This document shows, in pieces, positions 1,778-11,077 of a DNA stretch of 11,112 bases. Where the stretch lies: NCBI GenBank assembly GCA_036679605.1, contig JAZDCZ010000286.1, forward strand, positions 1 through 11,112. Direction: 5' to 3'. Origin of the DNA: Gemmatimonadota bacterium. Its GTDB lineage: Bacteria; Gemmatimonadota; Gemmatimonadetes; Gemmatimonadales; GWC2-71-9. Position 1 is the stretch's first letter, and each line of letters opens with the position of its first letter. The notes under the pieces were generated by a model. The model did not search any database, was not told where the DNA came from, and was given only the letters and a program-made list of their open reading frames with translations. The position numbers were made by a program, and so were the translations under genes.

Positions 1778-2011
1778 GTGCACTATGAGTATCTACCCGA
1801 AGATCTGTATCCTTTTAAGTCACACTGGCACTAGATCGACGGTCTGCCGGTTCACTATATCGACGAGGGGCAAGGCAAGCCCCTGCTGTTTTTGCACGGG
1901 AATCTGACATGGAGCCTACTTTACCGCGACATCGTCAAGGATCTGCGTGATCGTTACCGCTGTATAGCGGTAGACTACCCGGGGATGGGTCTGAGCGGGA
2001 AGCCGCGTGAT
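1778..2011 (+). pseudogene. Truncated alpha/beta hydrolase, haloalkane dehalogenase / OleB-like
   Basis: From GTG 1778: HYEYLPEDLYPFKSHWH*IDGLPVHYIDEGQGKPLLFLHGNLTWSLLYRDIVKDLRDRYRCIAVDYPGMGLSGKPRD. This matches the HLD/OleB N-terminus (YPF..HY.DEG.G...HGNP.WS..YR...RCIA.D..G.G.S.KP). There is an in-frame TAG at 1832-1834, and similarity stops before the nucleophile motif. Confidence 0.85.
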
Positions 2012-2061
2012 CGAAGCAACGTATCGGGTGTAACTACCGACGCGATCCCAAAGAGTTCCTC

Positions 2062-2257
2062 TCATAGGACTTTCCTCGCCTTGGCGGCCAAGCGGCGCCG
2101 CTGCGCATCGGTCAGCAACAGACGCTTGCCTCCGAGTTGTTCGCGCAGAACGCGATTCTCCTCTTGGAGATATTCGATGACATCTTGCTGGCTACGGTTG
2201 ACCCATCCGGCTACGGCCGGCGATGACGGCAGCTCGCAAGGGAATAATATTACTCAC
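2062..2257 (-). mobile_element. Transposase remnant (N-terminal fragment of an integrase-core/rve transposase), frameshifted and truncated
   Basis: The minus strand reads [51 protein letters not shown], the typical N-terminus of a widespread rve-domain transposase family ([36 protein letters not shown]). The likely GTG start at 2257 is one base out of frame, and there is no DDE core. Confidence 0.75.
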
Positions 2258-2337
2258 GTTTCTGCCGGCCGGGTTTTGGCGTTATACGGGGTCGATGCCT
2301 GCGGCCGAGACGCGCGAAGGTGGGCTTCTCCCATATC

Positions 2338-2850
2338 TCAGTGATTGTGCTCCTCGTGAGCGTCACCGGATGGAGACTCCGGATAGAGCTTTCTCATATA
2401 GCTAAGCCTTTTTTCAAGCTCGGCAAACTCCATCGCGGTTCGCTCTGCATCGCCGGTGTCGCCGTACATGTCGAGGTTTTTTGCATGCTCCGCCACACGG
2501 TCTACGTAGCCTGCAAGCATCTTCTGTTTAGCTTCCGAAAGATCTGTCGACTTCTCTGACAACTCCTTCGCCAGATCGCGGATGCCGAACGCTATCTTGT
2601 GGACATCTGCTAACTTGCCGGAATCGATTATGTGGCTGAGCCGTTCGATGTCAGCATCGATAGCACGCCAAAGTTCGGCAGCCGTCTGCTGTTCTTCATC
2701 GCTAGCTCTGTCCTCGTTTGCTTCGTGGATGGCGTTCAGCTCGCCTCCGTGTTCGTGCCCACCGCTTGCAGCACTTTCCGTCGCGGTGGCTAGCCAGATG
2801 GCCGAGGCGCAAATAAGCATAGTTGTCATCATCCAGTTGGTTTTCATCAT
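2338..2850 (-). CDS. Exported His-rich helical protein; putative periplasmic metal-binding protein or chaperone of the efflux operon
   Basis: GAGGAG RBS at 2857-2862. Sec-type signal peptide, GGHEHGG near the mature N-terminus, C-terminal HEEHNH, and an amphipathic all-helical core. It is the last gene of the RND operon. Confidence 0.85.
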   Translation of the reverse strand: MMKTNWMMTTMLICASAIWLATATESAASGGHEHGGELNAIHEANEDRASDEEQQTAAELWRAIDADIERLSHIIDSGKLADVHKIAFGIRDLAKELSEKSTDLSEAKQKMLAGYVDRVAEHAKNLDMYGDTGDAERTAMEFAELEKRLSYMRKLYPESPSGDAHEEHNH

Positions 2851-2891
2851 TGTTTTCTCCTCGATCTTCGCTTGTTGGTGTCGGTCGGCAG

Positions 2892-3011
2892 TTAATGGGG
2901 ACTCTTTCGGCTCATCGCCTCCATCCCGCGCAGTTCCTCGCTGGTTAGGTCCGGAAGGTGACGAATGATAAAGAAAGCAATCTTATGTGATGCGACAGGG
3001 GATTGAGTCAT
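2892..3011 (-). CDS. Possible 39-aa small ORF coupled to the RND pump gene
   Basis: ATGA overlap with the pump stop codon (3008-3011) and GAGGT about 6 nt upstream. Sequence: MTQSPVASHKIAFFIIRHLPDLTSEELRGMEAMSRKSPH*. Confidence 0.3.
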   Translation of the reverse strand: MTQSPVASHKIAFFIIRHLPDLTSEELRGMEAMSRKSPH

Positions 3012-6000
3012 TGCTTAACCTCGTTGTTCGTCTGCTCGTTCGTATCGTTTCCAGCGCCTGCTCCGTACTTCGCTGGAAAGATGCGTGAGAGTTGCTCAGG
3101 GCATTCAAGGCGGAAAATCTTTTCTGCGGCTCTTCCTCCGAAGTGCCAAAAAACAGCAGGAGTGACGACTACGTCGAGAAGCGCCGAAGTCATAAGTCCA
3201 CCGAAAACGACAACCGCTACTGGGTAGAGGATTTCTTTGCCAGGCTCGCCCTGCGCAAGCAGTAAGGGTACAAGAGCCAAACTGGTAGTCAGTGCGGTCA
3301 TCAACACAGGGACCAGGCGGTCAAGGGAACCACGGACTATCATTTCTCTGTCGAAGCACTCTCCTTCGTAACGCATCAGGTGCAAATAGTGGCTGAGCAT
3401 CATAATTCCGTTTCGCGAAGCGATGCCGCAAAGCGTAATAAATGCTACTAGCGAGGCCACACTGGCCACGCCTCCAGTGAGCTTTATCGCTACGATGGAA
3501 CCGATCATCGCGAAAGGAATATCCAAGAGCACCTGAGCGACTATGCGTCCCGAGCGAAAATGCGTATAGAGCACCATGATCATCCCAGCCAGTGAGAAGA
3601 GGCTTAGCAGCCCAATGAGCCGCGTAGCCTCTTGTTGGCTCTCGAACTGGCCGCCGTAGGTAACGAAGTATCCTTCCGGTAACTGGATGTGCTGGGCGAC
3701 CCGCTCCTGAATGTCCGCTACGACGCTTCCCAGGTCGCGCCCGCTGACGTTGGATTGGATAACGATGCGGCGCTGCACGTTTTCTCGCAGCACTTGGTTC
3801 GGCCCTTTACTCTCGATGACGCGTGCGACCGCGCGAAGTGGAATCAGCTGTCCGTTAGGGGTGTCGATGAGAATGTTTCCGAGCGTCTTGGAGCTCAAAC
3901 GGGTTTCATCGGGGAATATTGCGACGAGGTCGAAGCGACGTTGGCCCTCGAGTATTTCGCTGACCGTATCGCCCTGAAGCGCCGCCTGGAGCACCTTTGC
4001 AACCTCGCCTACCCGCAGCCCGTACTGGCGCACGGCATGGCGGTCGATCTCTACCCGGGTTTGCGGAATCAAGACCTGTTGCTCAACGTAGAGATCGACC
4101 ACGCCGGGGACTTCACTTATGACGGCGCGAATCGCCTCAGCCTTTTCCCTGAGCGTGGTTAGGTCCGAGCCGAAGAGCTTCACTGCAATCTGGGCGCGGA
4201 TGCCGGAGAGGAGGTGATCGATGCGATGGCTAATGGGCTGGCCGATGTTCACAACAACACCGGGGATGGTGGCTAGCCGCGCGCGCACATCGTCGAGGAT
4301 AACGTCGCGCTCTCGGGGCTCCGGCCCAGGGCGAGCCTCGACGAGGCCTACAAGGCGGCCTAGCCCACGGACGAGGTCCGTGCTTTCCGGATTCACGATC
4401 TCAACTTCGATTTCGGTGGAGTGCACACCCTCGGCGTGCTCGTCCTGTTCGGCGCGACCCACGCGTCGGCCTGTTTCTTTCACCTCTGGCACGGCACGGA
4501 TGAGCTTTTCTGCAAGCGTGCCGACACGGTTACTCTCCGCCAAGGACGTTCCGGGCGGAAGGAGAATGTTAATTGTCACGCTTCCCTCGTTGAATGGTGG
4601 GAGGAATTCTCGACCAAATCCCAAGAGCAGTAAGAGGGCAAGCCCTAAGGCGGTAAACGCTGTGCCCATAGTCAGCTTCGGATGAGTAAGGGTGTAGCGA
4701 AGAACGAAGCGCCGGTCGGCCCATTTTAGAAAGCGAACGAAGAAGCCGTCCTTCTCCCCCGCCATGAATCGCGCGCTGGGCAACAGGTAGCTAGCCAACA
4801 CCGGGGTAACGGTCAACGAAACAGCAAGCGAGGCAACTATCGAAACAACGTAGGCAATTCCCAGCGGCACGAAGATTCGGCCCTCGATGCCACCCATCGC
4901 GAACAGTGGCATAAAGACCAGGATGACGATGATCGTGGCGAACACGATGGAGTTCCGGATTTCACTCGACGCTTCAAAGACGACCTCAAGTGATGGTTTA
5001 GGAACAGCCGCGCGGTGGTTCTCTTTGAGACGTCGAAAAACGTTTTCCACATCCACGATGGCATCATCGACCAGCTCCCCTATGGCGATCGCGATGCCAC
5101 CGAGTGTCATCGTGTTGATGGTCATGTCGAACCATCGAAACACGAGGAACGTTACAACCAGTGACAGTGGGATAGCGCTGAGCGTGATAAAGGTCGTACG
5201 GAAGTTGAGAAGGAAGAGAAACAGCACGATGACCACAAAAATCGCACCATCTCTTAGTGCTTCGACGACGTTGCTAATAGCGGCCTCGATGAAGTTCGCC
5301 TGACGAAAGATGTGCTTGTTGATCTCGATCCCCTCGGGCAGACCTCTCTGAATGTCTTCGAGGGCGGCATCGATCTGTTCGGTAAGTTCGATTGTGCTCG
5401 CACCGGGCTGCTTCTGGATACTCATGATGACAGCCGGAAGCGCGTTACTGCCGGCGTCGCCTCGTTTGAGCGGCCCGAGTCCATGGATCCGCACATCAGC
5501 TACTTGACCGATGGTAACCGGGATACCGTCACGCGTTACGATGACCGCCTCCCGTAGATCGTCGACCGAGCGGATGCGGGCAAGATTGCGAACCATGGAC
5601 TCGACCGGGCCCTTGATGACGAAGTTCCCGGCGGTATTTACGTTCGACTCTTCAAGCGCTTTTTCCACATCGTGGAGCGTCACACCGAGAGCGCTAAGCT
5701 TATCTGGACGCACCACTACCTGGTACTGTTTAAGCTCACCGCCGATGACAGTGATTTTGGAGACGCCACTGATACTTAGCAGCCGAGGGCGGATGACCCA
5801 GTCGGCCTGCGTGCGAAGCTCCATCGGGGAAATCTCGTCGCCGGTGATGGCGATGAGCATGATCTCTCCCATGATGGAGCTTACCGGGGCCAACGTAGCC
5901 GCCGAGTCCTCGGGCAGTGCCTCACGAACCGTGCCCAGTTTCTCGGTCACAATCTGGCGGTCGATATATATGTCCGTGCCCCAATCGAACTCGACGAAAA

Positions 6001-6277
6001 CGAGGGCAAGTCCGACAGAGCTTACCGAGCGTACGCGCTGCACACCGGTTGCGCCGTTCATTGCTGTCTCGACGGGAAACGACACCAGTGTCTCCACTTC
6101 CTCGGGCGCTAGGCCTGGCGCTTCAAGAAAGATCGTCACGGTGGGTCGGTTAAGGTCGGGAAAGACATCCACCGGCAGGTTGTTCAGCACAAAACCACCG
6201 TAGACGAGCAGTAACACAGCCGCCGAAACGACGAAGATTCGATTCTTTAGTGAGAACTGAATAATACGGTTCAGCAC
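3008..6277 (-). CDS. czcA: CzcA/CusA-family heavy-metal efflux RND transporter permease
   Basis: 1089 aa. Motifs LPVDVFPDLNRPTV, APEEVETLVSFPVE, TM4 GGIAIAIGELVDDAIVDVEN, GREFLPPFNEG, YGGQFESQQ, RNGIMM and RLVPVLMTA. GTG start with a GGAGG RBS. The symbol is family-level. Confidence 0.96.
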   Translation of the reverse strand: MLNRIIQFSLKNRIFVVSAAVLLLVYGGFVLNNLPVDVFPDLNRPTVTIFLEAPGLAPEEVETLVSFPVETAMNGATGVQRVRSVSSVGLALVFVEFDWGTDIYIDRQIVTEKLGTVREALPEDSAATLAPVSSIMGEIMLIAITGDEISPMELRTQADWVIRPRLLSISGVSKITVIGGELKQYQVVVRPDKLSALGVTLHDVEKALEESNVNTAGNFVIKGPVESMVRNLARIRSVDDLREAVIVTRDGIPVTIGQVADVRIHGLGPLKRGDAGSNALPAVIMSIQKQPGASTIELTEQIDAALEDIQRGLPEGIEINKHIFRQANFIEAAISNVVEALRDGAIFVVIVLFLFLLNFRTTFITLSAIPLSLVVTFLVFRWFDMTINTMTLGGIAIAIGELVDDAIVDVENVFRRLKENHRAAVPKPSLEVVFEASSEIRNSIVFATIIVILVFMPLFAMGGIEGRIFVPLGIAYVVSIVASLAVSLTVTPVLASYLLPSARFMAGEKDGFFVRFLKWADRRFVLRYTLTHPKLTMGTAFTALGLALLLLLGFGREFLPPFNEGSVTINILLPPGTSLAESNRVGTLAEKLIRAVPEVKETGRRVGRAEQDEHAEGVHSTEIEVEIVNPESTDLVRGLGRLVGLVEARPGPEPRERDVILDDVRARLATIPGVVVNIGQPISHRIDHLLSGIRAQIAVKLFGSDLTTLREKAEAIRAVISEVPGVVDLYVEQQVLIPQTRVEIDRHAVRQYGLRVGEVAKVLQAALQGDTVSEILEGQRRFDLVAIFPDETRLSSKTLGNILIDTPNGQLIPLRAVARVIESKGPNQVLRENVQRRIVIQSNVSGRDLGSVVADIQERVAQHIQLPEGYFVTYGGQFESQQEATRLIGLLSLFSLAGMIMVLYTHFRSGRIVAQVLLDIPFAMIGSIVAIKLTGGVASVASLVAFITLCGIASRNGIMMLSHYLHLMRYEGECFDREMIVRGSLDRLVPVLMTALTTSLALVPLLLAQGEPGKEILYPVAVVVFGGLMTSALLDVVVTPAVFWHFGGRAAEKIFRLECPEQLSRIFPAKYGAGAGNDTNEQTNNEVKQ

Positions 6278-6328
6278 GACGTTGCCCTCCCGGCGGCGCG
6301 ACGTTTCACTGGCGGAATCCCAAAGACT

Positions 6329-8242
6329 CTACTCATGGGCTCTTCTTCCTTGTTCCTTTGTTGCGCCGCTGGTGCGGGCCAGCGGGGGTTTGCCGGGCTC
6401 GGGTACCACCGGACTATTGGTGGCAAACTGGAGAGCGTGGTTGCCTTGGGTGACAACGACGTCCCCAGGCAAGATGCCGTCACGAACCTCTACGTAGCGC
6501 GCATCTCGTCTACCGAGCTGGACGCGCTTGCGAGTGAAAAAGTCACCGCTTCGCACAAAGACGAATGCTTCGCCGCCCTCTGGGGCCGCAACCGCGGAGC
6601 GTGGTATAGCGACTAGCTCATCGTCGCTCTTGCCGATGATAATGTAGACTTCCACGCGCATGTTTGGTCGGAGCTTTCCCTGCGGTGCATCAACAAGGAT
6701 GTAAGCCGGTAGTGTGCGCGTGTTCTCGTCCACTTCACCCCCGAGATACGCCAGGCTTCCTGAGAAGGACTGGTCCGGATAGGCCGCCGAGTAGATATTG
6801 ACCGCCTGCCCAGGAGTAAGTGTCGGAACCTGGGGTTCGGGAACGTGGCACTTGACCAAGAGCCGGTCCAGCCGCGCGATCGTAAAGAGCGACTTGTCGG
6901 CGGAGACAGGCTCACCGAAGAACACATGCCGTTTGGTGACAACACCATCGAGCGTGGCTCGGATGTCTACTGTCGGGGGCGGTTCGCCGACTTGACGGGT
7001 CTCGATCTCGGCCAAGAGTTGGCCCCGCTCTACGATCTCGCCTTCCAGGACGTGAACACCGGTCACACGGCCGGCGATTCGAGTGCTTGAGTGGTGCAGA
7101 TTCGCGGGCAACGGCTCTACCATCCCAAAGCACTGGGTCGAGCGGTGAAGTAGGCGAAAATCCGCCGTCTCGACCTCGACACCGAGGTTACGCTGCGCGA
7201 GTTCGCTCAAGCGTACGCCGAGAACTGGATCGGTCTCACCGTCCTCGGCTTGTGAGTCCGTGGAGATGTCCTGCGTACCGGATGTATTCCGCGACCGTTT
7301 CTCCGCGTTTGCGGATGCAGCAAACTGGATCTGGTAGGCACCGCGGGTCACCACTCGGTCTCCGGGGACGAGACCGTCGGTTATCTCGACGTAAGCTTCG
7401 CCGCGACGTCCGACCCCCACAGGCACGCCGACGTAGTACGCACCTTTATCGAGAAACACGAACAGGTTTCCGCTTGCGCCCAGGATCGCATCGCTCGGAA
7501 CGACAACCACGTCGACCGCGCGACCGGTTATCAAGTCCACGCGCGCTCGCATGCCCGGGCGAAGAAGCCGTGCCGTGTTTTCTACCTTAATCCAAACGGG
7601 CAGTGTGCGCGTTGTCTCATCAAGAGCGCCGCCGATGAGAACAATCGGGCCATCGAACTTCCAGTCTCCGGCTGCTTCGGGAAAGATGCGCGCAGTCTGG
7701 CCAGCTCTTACCAAACCGGCATCGATTTCGAATAAGTTACATTTGACGTATAGCGTAGAGAGGTCGGAGATGCGATAAAGAACCGAATCCGGCTCTACCG
7801 GCTGGCCAACAGAAACGTTCCTTTCGGTCACCGTTCCGTCGATGCGCGAGGTTAGCGGCACCACCACGGGGCTAGCGGCCACATGGCGACTTTCAATCTC
7901 GACGAGTACATCGCCAACTTTCACGTGCTGACCGCTGTCGAAGTTGACCTTCGTTGCACGGCCTGGAAACCGAGGGCTTGCCCAATAGACCCGTCCTGGC
8001 ATCGGCTCCACGCTGCCATAACAGGTGACCGTGTCTTCGATCGTGCCCAGGTCCGCCTCTTCGCTCTCAATGCCGAGGATGAGTTTGGCCTCGTCGCTGA
8101 GCGTGATTGGTCCGAGGCTACCTACCGTCGCCGCAGGCGTTCCATGCTGCTCCCCTTCGTGGGCGCGTGAGCTTGGCACGGCGAGAAGGAGCAGCACCAT
8201 CCCAAGCCCTGCCGTCGGCCATCTGAGTTCCGCTCGCTTCAT
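6329..8242 (-). CDS. czcB: RND periplasmic adaptor (CzcB/CusB-like MFP) made of two tandem MFP modules
   Basis: Signal peptide ending SRA|HEGEQH. Two copies of G.VEP...GR...G..V..G..L.EIE...DG.V...LDE.TRTLP...LRP.MR...GRR...YVE..DG..PGD.VVT.G...QFA (aa ~46-308 and ~343-607). ATGA overlap with the TolC-family gene. The symbol is family-level. Confidence 0.93.
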   Translation of the reverse strand: MKRAELRWPTAGLGMVLLLLAVPSSRAHEGEQHGTPAATVGSLGPITLSDEAKLILGIESEEADLGTIEDTVTCYGSVEPMPGRVYWASPRFPGRATKVNFDSGQHVKVGDVLVEIESRHVAASPVVVPLTSRIDGTVTERNVSVGQPVEPDSVLYRISDLSTLYVKCNLFEIDAGLVRAGQTARIFPEAAGDWKFDGPIVLIGGALDETTRTLPVWIKVENTARLLRPGMRARVDLITGRAVDVVVVPSDAILGASGNLFVFLDKGAYYVGVPVGVGRRGEAYVEITDGLVPGDRVVTRGAYQIQFAASANAEKRSRNTSGTQDISTDSQAEDGETDPVLGVRLSELAQRNLGVEVETADFRLLHRSTQCFGMVEPLPANLHHSSTRIAGRVTGVHVLEGEIVERGQLLAEIETRQVGEPPPTVDIRATLDGVVTKRHVFFGEPVSADKSLFTIARLDRLLVKCHVPEPQVPTLTPGQAVNIYSAAYPDQSFSGSLAYLGGEVDENTRTLPAYILVDAPQGKLRPNMRVEVYIIIGKSDDELVAIPRSAVAAPEGGEAFVFVRSGDFFTRKRVQLGRRDARYVEVRDGILPGDVVVTQGNHALQFATNSPVVPEPGKPPLARTSGATKEQGRRAHE

Positions 8243-9573
8243 GGCTGCACCTCACTGACTTTAGCGAGAACGTCTTCGAGCGGGGCGTCTACCGCGCCTT
8301 CGAGATCGGACAGGGCCTGGTAGTAAGCCTCTAGCGCATCGAGCCGTGCATTCTCCGCAGCGAAGCGCTGTTGTTGGGTCTGAATGAGCTGAACTGCACT
8401 GATGAGCCCCTCCTCATAGGCTTGCTCAGCTAGGCGTTGGCCCTTCGTAGCCGCCTCTATGCCTCGCTGCAGCCCCCGAATCGCCACGAGCTGCTTGGTC
8501 GCGCGTTGATGTGCGTCTCGCACCTCTCGGTCTATATCTACGAGTGCAGACTCGCGCTGAGCTTCCGCCGTGCGTTCTCGTGCTGCGGCAGCCGCGATCT
8601 CGCCTTCATTGCGGTACAAGAGCGGCAATGGGATTCTGATCTGAAGACCTACAAAGTCGTTGCTGTCGGCAATGACGATTGGATTGTCGAAGCGGCTGCG
8701 CTCTCTCCGGTAACGGATACCTACCGTGGGGTCCGCCCAGCGCTCGGCGGTGCGAAGCGTTTTTTCAAGCTCGGCTGCCGCCGCTTCGCTCTGGAGGGCC
8801 TTAAGATCGGGCCGCTTGCGGGCTGCCTCTAGAAGCGGTACCAGTGGAAACGCTGCCTGACGGCCAGCGATCTCGGGCGAGAGGGTTAACCCGTCGGCGT
8901 GGGGCACGTTTAGCAGGCGACTGAGCTCGATTAGCGCCGAGTCGCGGTCTGCCCCCGAGCGCTCTGCCTCCTGGCGGCGCTGGGCGAGCTCGACGTCGAA
9001 CTGGTGCACATCCAGCTCTGAAACTTCACCGCGACCGAAACGCGCTCGGGCGACTCTCAACAGACGCTCGTTTAGAGCGGCTAAGTTTTGCGACAGCCGG
9101 ACTCGGCGGTCGATCACCTGGGCGCGGCGATAGGTTGCCCTGACCTGCGAAACAATACGCCTCGCAAGATCCTCAATGGACCAAGAGTCCCGCTCGAGCT
9201 CCTTGTTGGCAAGAGCGACGCGTTTGGAGACCTTGCCCAGAATCGGCACTTCCTGCTCCAGCCCAACGCCGTAGTCGTACTCTTTCGCGTCGGGGATCGA
9301 TGGCGCGCCCTCGACCGACAGTTCCGGGTTTGGGTAGGCGCGAGCAGCGCGCACTTTCGCACGCGCTATATCGAGGCTGGCGCGGGCGGCCCCAAGCTCG
9401 GCGTTTCTTGAGAGCGCCATCTCGATAGCCTCATCGAGCGCGAGTCCAGCGGGTGCTGGGTTATCATCGGCCCGAGCCAACCCCAGGGGGGCTGTCAGGC
9501 ACGCTAAAGCGAGAACAACTGTCAGGGCTGTGGTCGACTGCCGGTCTGAACTCCAGAGATGTATATTCCACAT
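8239..9573 (-). CDS. czcC: TolC-family outer membrane efflux protein (CzcC-like)
   Basis: Signal peptide ending ARA. Motifs LALDEAIEMALSRNAEL, YPNPEL, ARFGRGEVSELD, RPDL, IPLPLLYRNEGEI and AYEEGLIS form two OEP repeats. It lies directly upstream of the MFP and RND genes. Confidence 0.94.
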   Translation of the reverse strand: MWNIHLWSSDRQSTTALTVVLALACLTAPLGLARADDNPAPAGLALDEAIEMALSRNAELGAARASLDIARAKVRAARAYPNPELSVEGAPSIPDAKEYDYGVGLEQEVPILGKVSKRVALANKELERDSWSIEDLARRIVSQVRATYRRAQVIDRRVRLSQNLAALNERLLRVARARFGRGEVSELDVHQFDVELAQRRQEAERSGADRDSALIELSRLLNVPHADGLTLSPEIAGRQAAFPLVPLLEAARKRPDLKALQSEAAAAELEKTLRTAERWADPTVGIRYRRERSRFDNPIVIADSNDFVGLQIRIPLPLLYRNEGEIAAAAARERTAEAQRESALVDIDREVRDAHQRATKQLVAIRGLQRGIEAATKGQRLAEQAYEEGLISAVQLIQTQQQRFAAENARLDALEAYYQALSDLEGAVDAPLEDVLAKVSEVQP

Positions 9574-9750
9574 GAGATCTTCTTACCTATCCGTCTTTGT
9601 AAACACCGTTTGTCTTCACGTCCATGCGATACCGAGAGTCCGTCGGTTATACATCTCAGCACGCAACGCGATTAGCGCGATCTGTTCTCGTGCGGACAAA
9701 GCTATGCCGCACACGAGGCTCGGCTGGTCGCTACTAAAGAAGGGGCGTGG

Positions 9751-10191
9751 TCAGATCAGCAGAGAAGAGTTCGTAAGAAAGAGTTTTTCAGACTGAAGAG
9801 GCGGGGTGTAAGACAGGAAACACAGCCGCGTAGCGGCGAGACTGGAGGCGACGAACGATGAACTGGTTGACCAGAAGCCGGTTTGAGGGGCTAGCTTAAC
9901 CGGAGGACCGGTCTCATCCAGCCGAAACTCCTGAACCGAGGCGAGCACGGAACCGTTGCTACAGCAGGAATTCGTATCGTCTCTAGACTCCGGCGTGGGG
10001 GTCCCGTGGTGCTGGTGGTCATGCCGATGAGCGGTCCCATGCACGGCGTGAGTTAGGTCGGATGGCTTAGCTGCCGAGGCTTGCTCGATCAGGGAGCACT
10101 GCAGCGCCGGGGTCGCAAGCGCGGCGAGGAGCGACACGGCAAGCGTCGCGCGGGTCCTAAACCGTCTAAGCTGTGATGGTGCACATCTCAT
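9751..10191 (-). CDS. Small exported His/Cys-rich protein upstream of the efflux operon (CzcI / DUF2946 / HYC_CC_PP-like leader-type protein)
   Basis: Basic N-region plus a hydrophobic segment, then LQC, HAVHGTAHRHDHQHH, SCC, and C-terminal YTPP...LFLTNSSLLI*. This layout is typical of first genes of metal-transport operons. The exact start codon is uncertain. Confidence 0.75.
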   Translation of the reverse strand: MRCAPSQLRRFRTRATLAVSLLAALATPALQCSLIEQASAAKPSDLTHAVHGTAHRHDHQHHGTPTPESRDDTNSCCSNGSVLASVQEFRLDETGPPVKLAPQTGFWSTSSSFVASSLAATRLCFLSYTPPLQSEKLFLTNSSLLI

Positions 10192-10354
10192 CCAACTCTC
10201 ATTATCTCATACTTTGTGGTTATGGGTGACAGTACCCGCCGACAACACGGCGGTTCTACGAAGACAAAGTGTGGACCCGAGTTTGCCGATGACTGAAATG
10301 TGGTGGATGAAGTCGCGAGCGAACCCGTCTCTCACGGCTCGCTCCCGAATAAAA

Positions 10355-10402: not shown

Positions 10403-10431
10403 TTGCGGAAATACAGTATTACTGTCATAGT
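10403..10431 (+). promoter_or_regulatory. Putative sigma70 promoter of the TA operon with a palindromic operator in the spacer
   Basis: TTGCGG (10403-10408), a 17-nt spacer, then CATAGT (10426-10431). The spacer contains the palindrome ACAGTA-T-TACTGT (10413-10425). The ATG follows 7 nt after the -10 element. Confidence 0.65.
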
Positions 10432-10438
10432 GGTTCCC

Positions 10439-10669
10439 ATGCGAGATAAGGTCACGATCAACGAACGGGGTGTGATTACGATACCTGCAGCCGTCCGTCG
10501 GGCCTGTGGGCTCAAGGCGAACGACGAGCTGATACTCGAGAACACGGAGGAGGGCATCCTTCTACGTCCGGCGATCAGCGTGCCGATTGAGGTCTACACC
10601 GAAGAGCGCATCCGCGAGTTCGCAAGTGACGAAGAGGCTATCAGCGAGCATCTGCCGAAGCCCGAGTAG
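10439..10669 (+). CDS. vapB: AbrB/MazE/SpoVT-family DNA-binding antitoxin (VapB-like)
   Basis: MRDKVTINERGVITIPAAVRRACGLKANDELILENTEEGILLRP is a swapped-hairpin signature, followed by an acidic tail. ATG 10439 is preferred over TTG 10403, which coincides with the -35 box. Confidence 0.9.
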   Translation: MRDKVTINERGVITIPAAVRRACGLKANDELILENTEEGILLRPAISVPIEVYTEERIREFASDEEAISEHLPKPE

Positions 10670-10678
10670 GGATACCGC

Positions 10679-11077
10679 ATGCGGGTGTTCCTGGATGCCA
10701 ACGTTCTGTTTTCAGCGAGCAGGGTCGGGAGCAGCATCGCGAGGCTGATCGCTTGGCTGATAGAGCGAGAGATAGCAGTCACTAGTGATCTCGCGGTCGA
10801 AGAAGCGCGACGCAACCTTACTCTGAAACGCGAGGACTGGCTGCCTGTCTTCGAGGAACTTCTCGGAGACTTGGTAGTCGTGCCATCGGCATTGTTCGAT
10901 CTTCCCGTCCCGCTTGATACCAAGGACGCCCCACTGTTATGTGCAGCGATTCGAAGCCGGTGCAGTTTGTTTGTCACCGGCGACAAGCGCGACTTCGGTC
11001 ACCTCTACGGCCATACGGTACAGGGGGTCGAAGTGATCTCGTTGCTCCGCTTGGCTGAAATGGTACTGCCAAGTTGA
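10679..11077 (+). CDS. vapC: PIN-domain ribonuclease toxin (VapC-like)
   Basis: MRVFLDANVLFSA, EEARRNL, KDAPLL and FVTGDKRDF supply the PIN acidic residues. It begins 9 nt after the antitoxin stop. Confidence 0.92.
   Translation: MRVFLDANVLFSASRVGSSIARLIAWLIEREIAVTSDLAVEEARRNLTLKREDWLPVFEELLGDLVVVPSALFDLPVPLDTKDAPLLCAAIRSRCSLFVTGDKRDFGHLYGHTVQGVEVISLLRLAEMVLPS

Follow-up and report, generated by a model that had tools for sequence, protein, structure and literature searches.

A tandem hairpin-less periplasmic adaptor in a putative heavy-metal RND operon of a Gemmatimonadota bacterium

An 11,112-nt contig of a Gemmatimonadota bacterium (JAZDCZ010000286.1, assembly GCA_036679605.1), which was analysed as a whole and is referred to here as the window, encodes on its minus strand a periplasmic adaptor protein (PAP), or membrane fusion protein (MFP), of 637 amino acids (aa). 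The protein carries two adaptor modules in a single chain, and both modules are devoid of the alpha-helical hairpin. Its gene lies between those of an outer-membrane factor (OMF) and a resistance-nodulation-division (RND) pump. The reading preferred here, to which a probability of about 0.55 is given, is a tripartite exporter of divalent metals in which three tandem chains fill the six adaptor positions and a ring of lipoyl domains meets a weakly gated OMF.

The hairpin-less adaptor BesA belongs to the BesABC system of Borrelia burgdorferi (PDB 4KKS/4KKT/4KKU). It has a 9-residue loop, and a contact between its lipoyl domain and the exit duct has been proposed (Greene 2013, PMC3807786). According to the same source hairpin-less adaptors are also found in other spirochetes and rarely in proteobacteria, BesB could not be expressed and BesC could not be crystallised. 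The acidic gate is disrupted in BesC (PMC4338810, PMC4446572), and BesA has been considered perhaps the biggest challenge to tip-to-tip models (PMC4446572). [quoted passage not shown] However, BesA is single, lipid-anchored and drug-exporting, whereas this adaptor is doubled, has no lipobox and is the partner of a heavy-metal efflux (HME) pump. Identity between the two proteins is about 21%, and the BesA-like protein P0263 lies far from the adaptor in a FastTree phylogeny from which BesA itself is absent.

Regarding tandem adaptors, DSY0927 of Desulfitobacterium hafniense is an ABC-linked natural fusion of two different MFPs whose N-terminal half has no coiled coil (PMC4338810), and it has been read as evidence for dimeric functional units (PMC4338810, PMC4446572). 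It shares with the present adaptor the natural single chain with two MFPs, but it is ABC-type and Gram-positive with unlike halves (MF-type and RND-type), whereas here the halves are homologous, hairpin-less and part of an RND-OMF pump. DSY0927, TriABC and functional AcrA tandem fusions have been cited in support of a trimer of dimers (PMC4446572), for which CusB is a precedent (PMC4446572, PMC4338810, PMC3807786). TriABC-OpmH has, as proposed here, two non-equivalent adaptors per RND protomer, TriA and TriB being 36% identical and both required (PMC4338810), and the engineered AcrA-AcrA fusions are functional in tandem arrangement (PMC4446572). Further context is given in PMC8277102 and PMC13450314.

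ZneB is the closest solved sequence to module 1 (E 2e-16); polyubiquitin matches from that search are noise produced by summing over repeats. CzcB, ZneB and CusB also have a CusA/CzcA-family RND as partner, but they are single and hairpin-bearing. PDB 6VEJ (chain P), which we take to be an engineered TriA-TriB fusion, contains three chains of 695 aa, and each of them holds two MFP modules. TriABC-OpmH, AcrA-AcrA and 6VEJ differ from the present system in that hairpins are present, drugs are exported, and the modules come from separate genes or from engineering. IhpB, of the Bradyrhizobium IhpABC divalent metal ion exporter (NF045680), has a function that fits the His/Glu site of the RND described below, but it has a single module and the adaptor scores far below the NF045680 cut-off. 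The NF045680 profile (326 positions) aligns unbroken across the lipoyl junction of hairpin-less modules, and IhpB appears to be hairpin-less too.

The initial annotation of the window had named an earlier characterisation of the architecture as a ground for refutation. This partly applies, as DSY0927 and the AcrA tandem fusions are in print and tandems are common in metagenomes. A heavy-metal adaptor that is both doubled and hairpin-less was not encountered in the literature searched, which covered few subscription journals. Tandem adaptors and hairpin loss each have a precedent; a published metal pump that combines the two and shows a corresponding change of its OMF gate was not found in these searches.

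Two modules in one chain

The following features were assigned to the adaptor.

6329..8242 (-): tandem periplasmic adaptor (PAP/MFP) of 637 aa, hairpin-less in both modules; open reading frame (ORF), Pfam/NCBIfam profiles, self-alignment, structure model
8162..8242 (-): putative cleavable signal peptide of signal peptidase (SPase) I type, aa 1-27; read from the sequence by eye
8141..8161 (-): His-containing mature N-terminus, aa 28-34; invariant in 8/8 alignment rows
7313..8113 (-): module 1, aa 44-310, MP domain, beta-barrel and lipoyl domain, no hairpin; profiles, model, BesA alignment
7868..7888 (-): 7-residue loop in the place of the hairpin, module 1; census, model
7220..7312 (-): polar disordered linker between the modules; predicted local distance difference test (pLDDT) <50
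6416..7219 (-): module 2, aa 342-609, MP domain, beta-barrel and lipoyl domain, no hairpin; profiles, model, BesA alignment
6977..6997 (-): 7-residue loop in the place of the hairpin, module 2; census, model

The adaptor ORF has no internal stops, and its two halves (aa ~44-310 and ~342-609) are 39% identical in an alignment of 268 aa (E 4e-64). A hidden Markov model (HMM) domain scan has revealed two matches each of HlyD_D23, HlyD_3 and Biotin_lipoyl_2, and TIGR01730 scored 245 bits with the whole adaptor and 125 and 128 bits with the separate modules (cut-off 94.9). This score, the structure and the RND and OMF gene neighbours place the protein in the RND periplasmic adaptor (MFP/PAP) family, and it stays below the cut-offs of the CzcB/NccB profile TIGR00999 (224.9 bits; cut-off 319.3) and of the IhpB equivalog NF045680 (193.9 bits with both modules, 93-96 with each; cut-off 450). 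No DNA repeat is left between the modules (best self-BLASTN match 23 nt, E 0.13), and the doubling is considered old because the halves have diverged and no such repeat survives.

The initial annotation had proposed two complete MFP modules joined by a polar linker of about 34 aa. The two modules, the motif pairs quoted from them and the linker, which contains neither a stop nor a visible second signal peptide, were all found; completeness was not, as both modules have lost the alpha-hairpin, a more unusual feature that the initial annotation had missed. The only in-frame start codon at the linker is a TTG (aa 345) without a Shine-Dalgarno-like sequence. The linker measures 34 aa here and 32-53 aa in 9 doubles, and its sequence is unconserved. 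Among the differences listed in the contig pieces of relatives, 11 of 12 sites in module 1 and 12 of 15 in module 2 are at codon position 3, and both modules are folded in the structure model. From the codon pattern both look constrained and neither degenerate.

Homologs share with the adaptor the position of the Ala|His junction of the signal peptide. A lipobox Cys was absent from all 11 doubles tested, and the adaptor has no hydrophobic tail. The His-containing N-terminus may be a metal-binding tail. Module 1 has an invariant pair of Cys residues (C74/C168), the counterpart in module 2 (C371/C465) is confined to the sub-clade of the window, and these pairs could form a beta-barrel disulfide.

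The fusion is covered by one Logan contig that spans positions 2300-10300 with 0 differences and 0 gaps, although this contig does not represent raw reads and may derive from the source sample. Full-length double-module homologs, proposed in the initial annotation as a check, were found: 7 of 116 matches are full-length doubles (44-74% identity to the adaptor), and with P0117, P0265 and P0266 (the latter two judged by eye) they bring the others to ten. Six doubles seem to share the operon layout, on the indirect ground that a close RND relative is recorded on an equal-sized contig. The top 150 profile matches, drawn from 1.84 billion representatives, comprised 89 doubles with hairpins, 2 doubles without them, 43 hairpin-less singles and 16 others, a tally that is not a frequency because the two-module profile favours doubles.

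Several other tandem adaptors were observed in these searches. A large hairpin-bearing group comprises 96 proteins of 650-800 aa (P0120, P0010-P0013 and P0020 among them) whose linkers have a median length of 13 aa (n=96); most of them belong to the group that is sister to the hairpin-less clade and have a similar His N-terminus, and no literature on this group was found. In P0152, P0161, P0181 and about 25 other hairpin-bearing doubles, module 2 ends after the beta-barrel and most of the MP domain is gone. P0263 (629 aa) is an independent hairpin-less tandem; a hydrophobic anchor is present at its N-terminus, and its loops are labelled BesA-like by resemblance. Further separate origins are represented by P0024/P0026/P0041, P0087 and P0200, one of them with an N-terminal heavy-metal-binding domain (PF19335). 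Longer forms (1179-3365 aa) were not found at E<=1e-10 among 8000 candidates, which is weak evidence. None of 251 pattern matches in viral contigs was confirmed, and plasmids gave no match to the hairpin-bearing double P0120 at 1e-30. No double was present in 40 relatives of the host, with one hairpin-less single (G022), or in 400 genomes of the phylum, for which 3 candidates per genome were scored, again with one hairpin-less single (G393).

Missing hairpins and the hairpin-less family

In a census based on profiles of the two lipoyl-flanking parts, 7 residues separate the lipoyl halves in both modules, compared with about 60-90 in hairpin-bearing adaptors. The AlphaFold model of the adaptor (pLDDT 75.9, predicted TM-score (pTM) 0.64, alignment of 8 sequences) has both modules folded, the linker disordered and no helix at the hairpin site, so that neither module has the alpha-helical hairpin of canonical adaptors of the AcrA/MexA/CusB/ZneB type. 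The loop is conserved over 123 modules: eight of its positions (Glu, Ser, Arg, Gln, Gly and Pro three times) keep their residue in 94-115 of these modules. In Foldseek comparisons the target-normalised TM-score was 0.65-0.67 for BesA, whereas ZneB (3lnn_A) and CusB (3ne5) at full length reached 0.44-0.45; the chain 3lnn_B, which is shorter, scored 0.62. In VIA, BesA matched module 1 with Z 15.8 (246 residues, root-mean-square deviation (rmsd) 5.2) and module 2 with Z 14.9 (245 residues, rmsd 8.8), and the scores of MacA and ZneB differ from these by no more than about 1.5 Z. The pTM of 0.64 exceeds the 0.39-0.49 expected by arithmetic for independently placed modules, a hint that AlphaFold packs the modules side by side.

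The doubles belong to a family of hairpin-less single adaptors. A total of 54 loci with a hairpin-less single were collected, near-duplicates included. All 36 GTDB loci have single adaptors and no double, and these are hairpin-less wherever the junction is covered; they are mostly from Verrucomicrobiota, with some Nitrospirota-, Chloroflexota- and Eisenbacteria-labelled records. The 23 metagenome loci contained no double. Where enough flank was available, an OMF is encoded directly upstream of the hairpin-less single in 41 of 42 loci and an RND more than 50% identical downstream in 47 of 47. A second RND system of CusA type (Met) often lies just upstream of the hairpin-less operon (L003, L007, L010-L012, L016, L022-L025, L059, L061 and L067), so that metal-resistance clusters are formed. 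Of 103 hairpin-less singles, 38 (P0014-P0019, L004, L006, L008 and L018 among them) have a C-terminus with a hydrophobic tail, often preceded by a stretch rich in His, and this tail may be a membrane anchor, which would be unusual for adaptors.

In an IQ-TREE analysis of 55 chosen modules, with the hairpin region excluded, the N-modules of the doubles form one clade (100/99) and the C-modules another (100/98), and both clades plus nine singles make up a 99/97 clade nested in the 99/96 hairpin-less clade. Identity is 59% within N-modules, 54% within C-modules and 40% between them, and the nearest singles are 47% identical to module 1 and 46% to module 2. Because N- and C-modules form separate clades, the fusion of hairpin-less modules is concluded to have arisen once, within the hairpin-less single-adaptor family, and its halves not to have been homogenised. 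In the FastTree phylogeny of 345 modules, doubles of all kinds fall in at least six separate groups.

Partner proteins and gene neighbourhood

The gene order on the minus strand is 146-aa ORF, OMF, adaptor, RND pump and 170-aa secreted protein. The partner genes and their sites are the following.

8239..9573 (-): OMF of the TolC/OEP family, 444 aa; PF02321 matched twice
8380..8391 (-): Q395/Q398 of the OMF at periplasmic-gate positions; Q398 aligned to Asp of SilC, CusC and OprJ
3008..6277 (-): CusA/CzcA-family heavy-metal RND pump, 1089 aa; TIGR00914, ZneA match
4214..4444 (-): His/acidic cluster in the RND porter domain, D612, H614, E616, H619, H684 and H688; conserved, with a lineage-specific 23-aa loop insertion between
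2338..2850 (-): secreted four-helix-bundle protein, 170 aa; homologs downstream in family loci
9751..10191 (-): 146-aa His/Cys-containing leader ORF; assigned by position, no family match

The stop of the OMF gene overlaps the start of the adaptor gene by 4 nt. The OMF is collinear with SilC, CusC and OprJ, without extension. The residue at the gate position is acidic in 3 of 44 OMFs encoded beside hairpin-less adaptors (38 unique), which mostly have Gln, and in 24 of 32 whose neighbour is a hairpin adaptor. These counts leave out one more OMF partnered by a hairpin-less adaptor, which had Gln, and two for which no partner was visible.

The RND protein scored 791.7 bits with TIGR00914 (cut-off 701.45). 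ZneA is its best PDB match (E 2e-137), the two being collinear through the docking domain, and no extension of this domain was found with respect to ZneA or CusA. A compensating elongation of the RND or the OMF was considered and was not seen in the alignments to ZneA/CusA and SilC/CusC/OprJ. The six residues of the His/acidic cluster are conserved at 98-100% in 41 family RNDs and in 0 of 15 CusA-type RNDs of the same loci. The periplasmic Met triad of CusA-type Cu(I)/Ag(I) pumps is not present: the positions aligned to it are non-Met, and the position of H688 is Met in CusA-type RNDs. The His/Glu site points to a divalent transition metal as the cargo.

An insertion of 20-23 aa in the RND porter domain (aa ~630-652, window 4322-4390 on the minus strand) occurs in 10 of 119 close RNDs. 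Co-adaptation of this loop to the fusion was rejected, as the RNDs on contigs matching the doubles P0004, P0005 and P0007 are without it.

The 170-aa protein is a four-helix bundle with invariant H84, D92, D127 and D131, and 12 of the 34 family loci whose flanks are long enough have a homolog downstream. It gave no Pfam match above cut-off and no PDB match at E<=0.001, with PsbQ- and cytochrome c'-like folds at E>=0.025, and it is plausibly a candidate periplasmic metal chaperone. The 146-aa ORF is probably the first gene of the operon, its position being what assigns it to the system. Scans for promoters and terminators did not rise above chance (2 versus 2.6 and 7 versus 7.4).

Outside the operon, the plus strand encodes a radical SAM protein (214-1236; PF04055) and an ORF of 123 aa that matches no family (1401-1772). 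They are followed by a broken alpha/beta-hydrolase gene (1786-2344, plus strand), in which PF00561 covers only the first 51 aa of the ORF 1892-2344 with unrelated sequence after it; it is possibly the edge of an inserted metal-efflux island. A VapBC-like pair, a MazE/AbrB-like antitoxin and a PIN-domain protein, is located at 10403-11077 (plus strand), divergent from the operon. The genome bin (G000) has 6.7 Mb, compared with 3.7 Mb in a genus mate, and 6.3% contamination; in a check for mis-binning, the composition of the contig fell in the main cluster of the bin.

Proposed assembly and alternative explanations

According to the preferred reading, the signal peptide would be cleaved, leaving a soluble, unanchored adaptor, and three tandem chains would wrap the RND trimer with modules 1 and 2 in the two non-equivalent adaptor positions (3:3:3). 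The covalent linkage would supply the avidity that is given elsewhere by hairpin-hairpin contacts and a membrane anchor. The 34-aa linker should suffice because the chain of a module both begins and ends in its MP domain and a much shorter linker is enough for hairpin-bearing doubles. A ring against the six helical tips of the OMF would be formed by the six lipoyl domains and the conserved Pro-rich loops that they carry; this ring is the likely OMF contact because the hairpins are absent and neither the pump nor the OMF is extended. The OMF would need little unlocking, as proposed for BesABC, and the cargo would be a divalent transition metal (Ni, Co, Zn, Fe or Mn) and not Cu(I)/Ag(I). Stoichiometry, module specialisation, OMF docking and cargo are all inferred here. 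The initial annotation had also suggested that three copies of the fusion could build the six-position ring; the geometry fits, and PDB 6VEJ with its three two-module chains agrees with it, but a canonical hairpin-lined tip-to-tip ring cannot be built because both hairpins are lost.

Module-specific residues (for example S132/A429, N142/H439 and Q147/E444) are fixed across doubles that are 43-73% identical and, together with the separate N- and C-module clades, they are consistent with specialisation of the modules without proving it.

Several observations weigh against this reading or parts of it. The single adaptors of the family fulfil this role as six identical copies, which makes specialisation unnecessary in principle, and the fixed differences are found in only about 4 lineages, in which drift can produce them. 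A simple in-place duplication is not established: an exclusive clade of modules 1 and 2 was marginally rejected (approximately unbiased (AU) test, p 0.032, the group having been named after inspection of the tree), so that either two paralogs fused or some of the singles are reversions. The nearest singles also have no membrane anchor, and therefore anchor loss did not force the fusion. Concerning the gate, 8 of the 32 hairpin-partnered control OMFs have no acid, the 3 family OMFs counted above retain it, and the contrast is essentially that of one clade with OMFs from one order. The metal is assigned purely by residue type, and the pTM argument is indirect and built on an 8-sequence alignment.

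The alternative that survives best accepts three copies and six positions but takes the modules as interchangeable, the duplication or fusion being near-neutral or dosage-fixing and the differences drift. The repeated appearance of tandems on the module tree, the far more numerous singles in the same operon (36/36 GTDB loci without a double) and the equal distance of both modules to the closest singles agree with it, whereas the fixed residue pairs, the absence of homogenisation in the tree and the requirement for both TriA and TriB at 36% identity (PMC4338810) do not, and we regard it as unlikely. Somewhat harder to sustain is a model of deep interpenetration, in which the adaptor merely clamps and activates the RND, direct RND-OMF contact seals the channel and the lipoyl loops remain undocked. 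An exit duct-transporter contact would be essential in BesABC, where the residual loop of BesA is flexible (Greene 2013, PMC3807786), and hairpin-less systems fit that model (PMC4446572); here, however, the loop is strongly conserved, unlike a mere scar, and neither the RND docking domain nor the OMF is extended, so this model is held to be doubtful.

It is improbable that one module per chain docks while the other serves as a periplasmic metal-capture or pump-clustering domain, or that the RND-adaptor pair works without an OMF. The linker is long enough for independence and a change of role is possible, as about 28 of the 96 hairpin-bearing doubles have a C-terminally shortened module 2 and 68 are near-complete, but in this adaptor all domains of module 2, among them the MP domain that binds the pump, are retained at high pLDDT, and nearly all family loci have the OMF gene directly upstream. 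Finally, a merging of adjacent genes by assembly error or recent stop loss, which the possible source-sample origin of the sole linker-spanning contig might favour, can be dismissed given ten further full-length fusions with divergent linkers from Logan, JGI and NCBI and the absence of a second signal peptide.

The preferred reading of a tandem-chain metal exporter may be part of a wider one, which is put forward tentatively and with less than even odds: a widespread, largely unrecognised class of heavy-metal RND systems would have a hairpin-less channel, formed by a lipoyl ring with conserved Pro-rich loops that docks directly on a Gln-gated OMF, and here the ring would consist of three specialised two-module chains (3:3:3). 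Tandem adaptors have arisen repeatedly, though the reviews consulted cite a single natural example. The hairpin-less family offers many alternative targets for studying how such pumps reach and open the outer-membrane channel, and in the tandem form each adaptor position is separately mutable in a natural protein. If the wider reading is true, these systems would be a natural counter-example, outside the spirochetes, to the hairpin tip-to-tip model.

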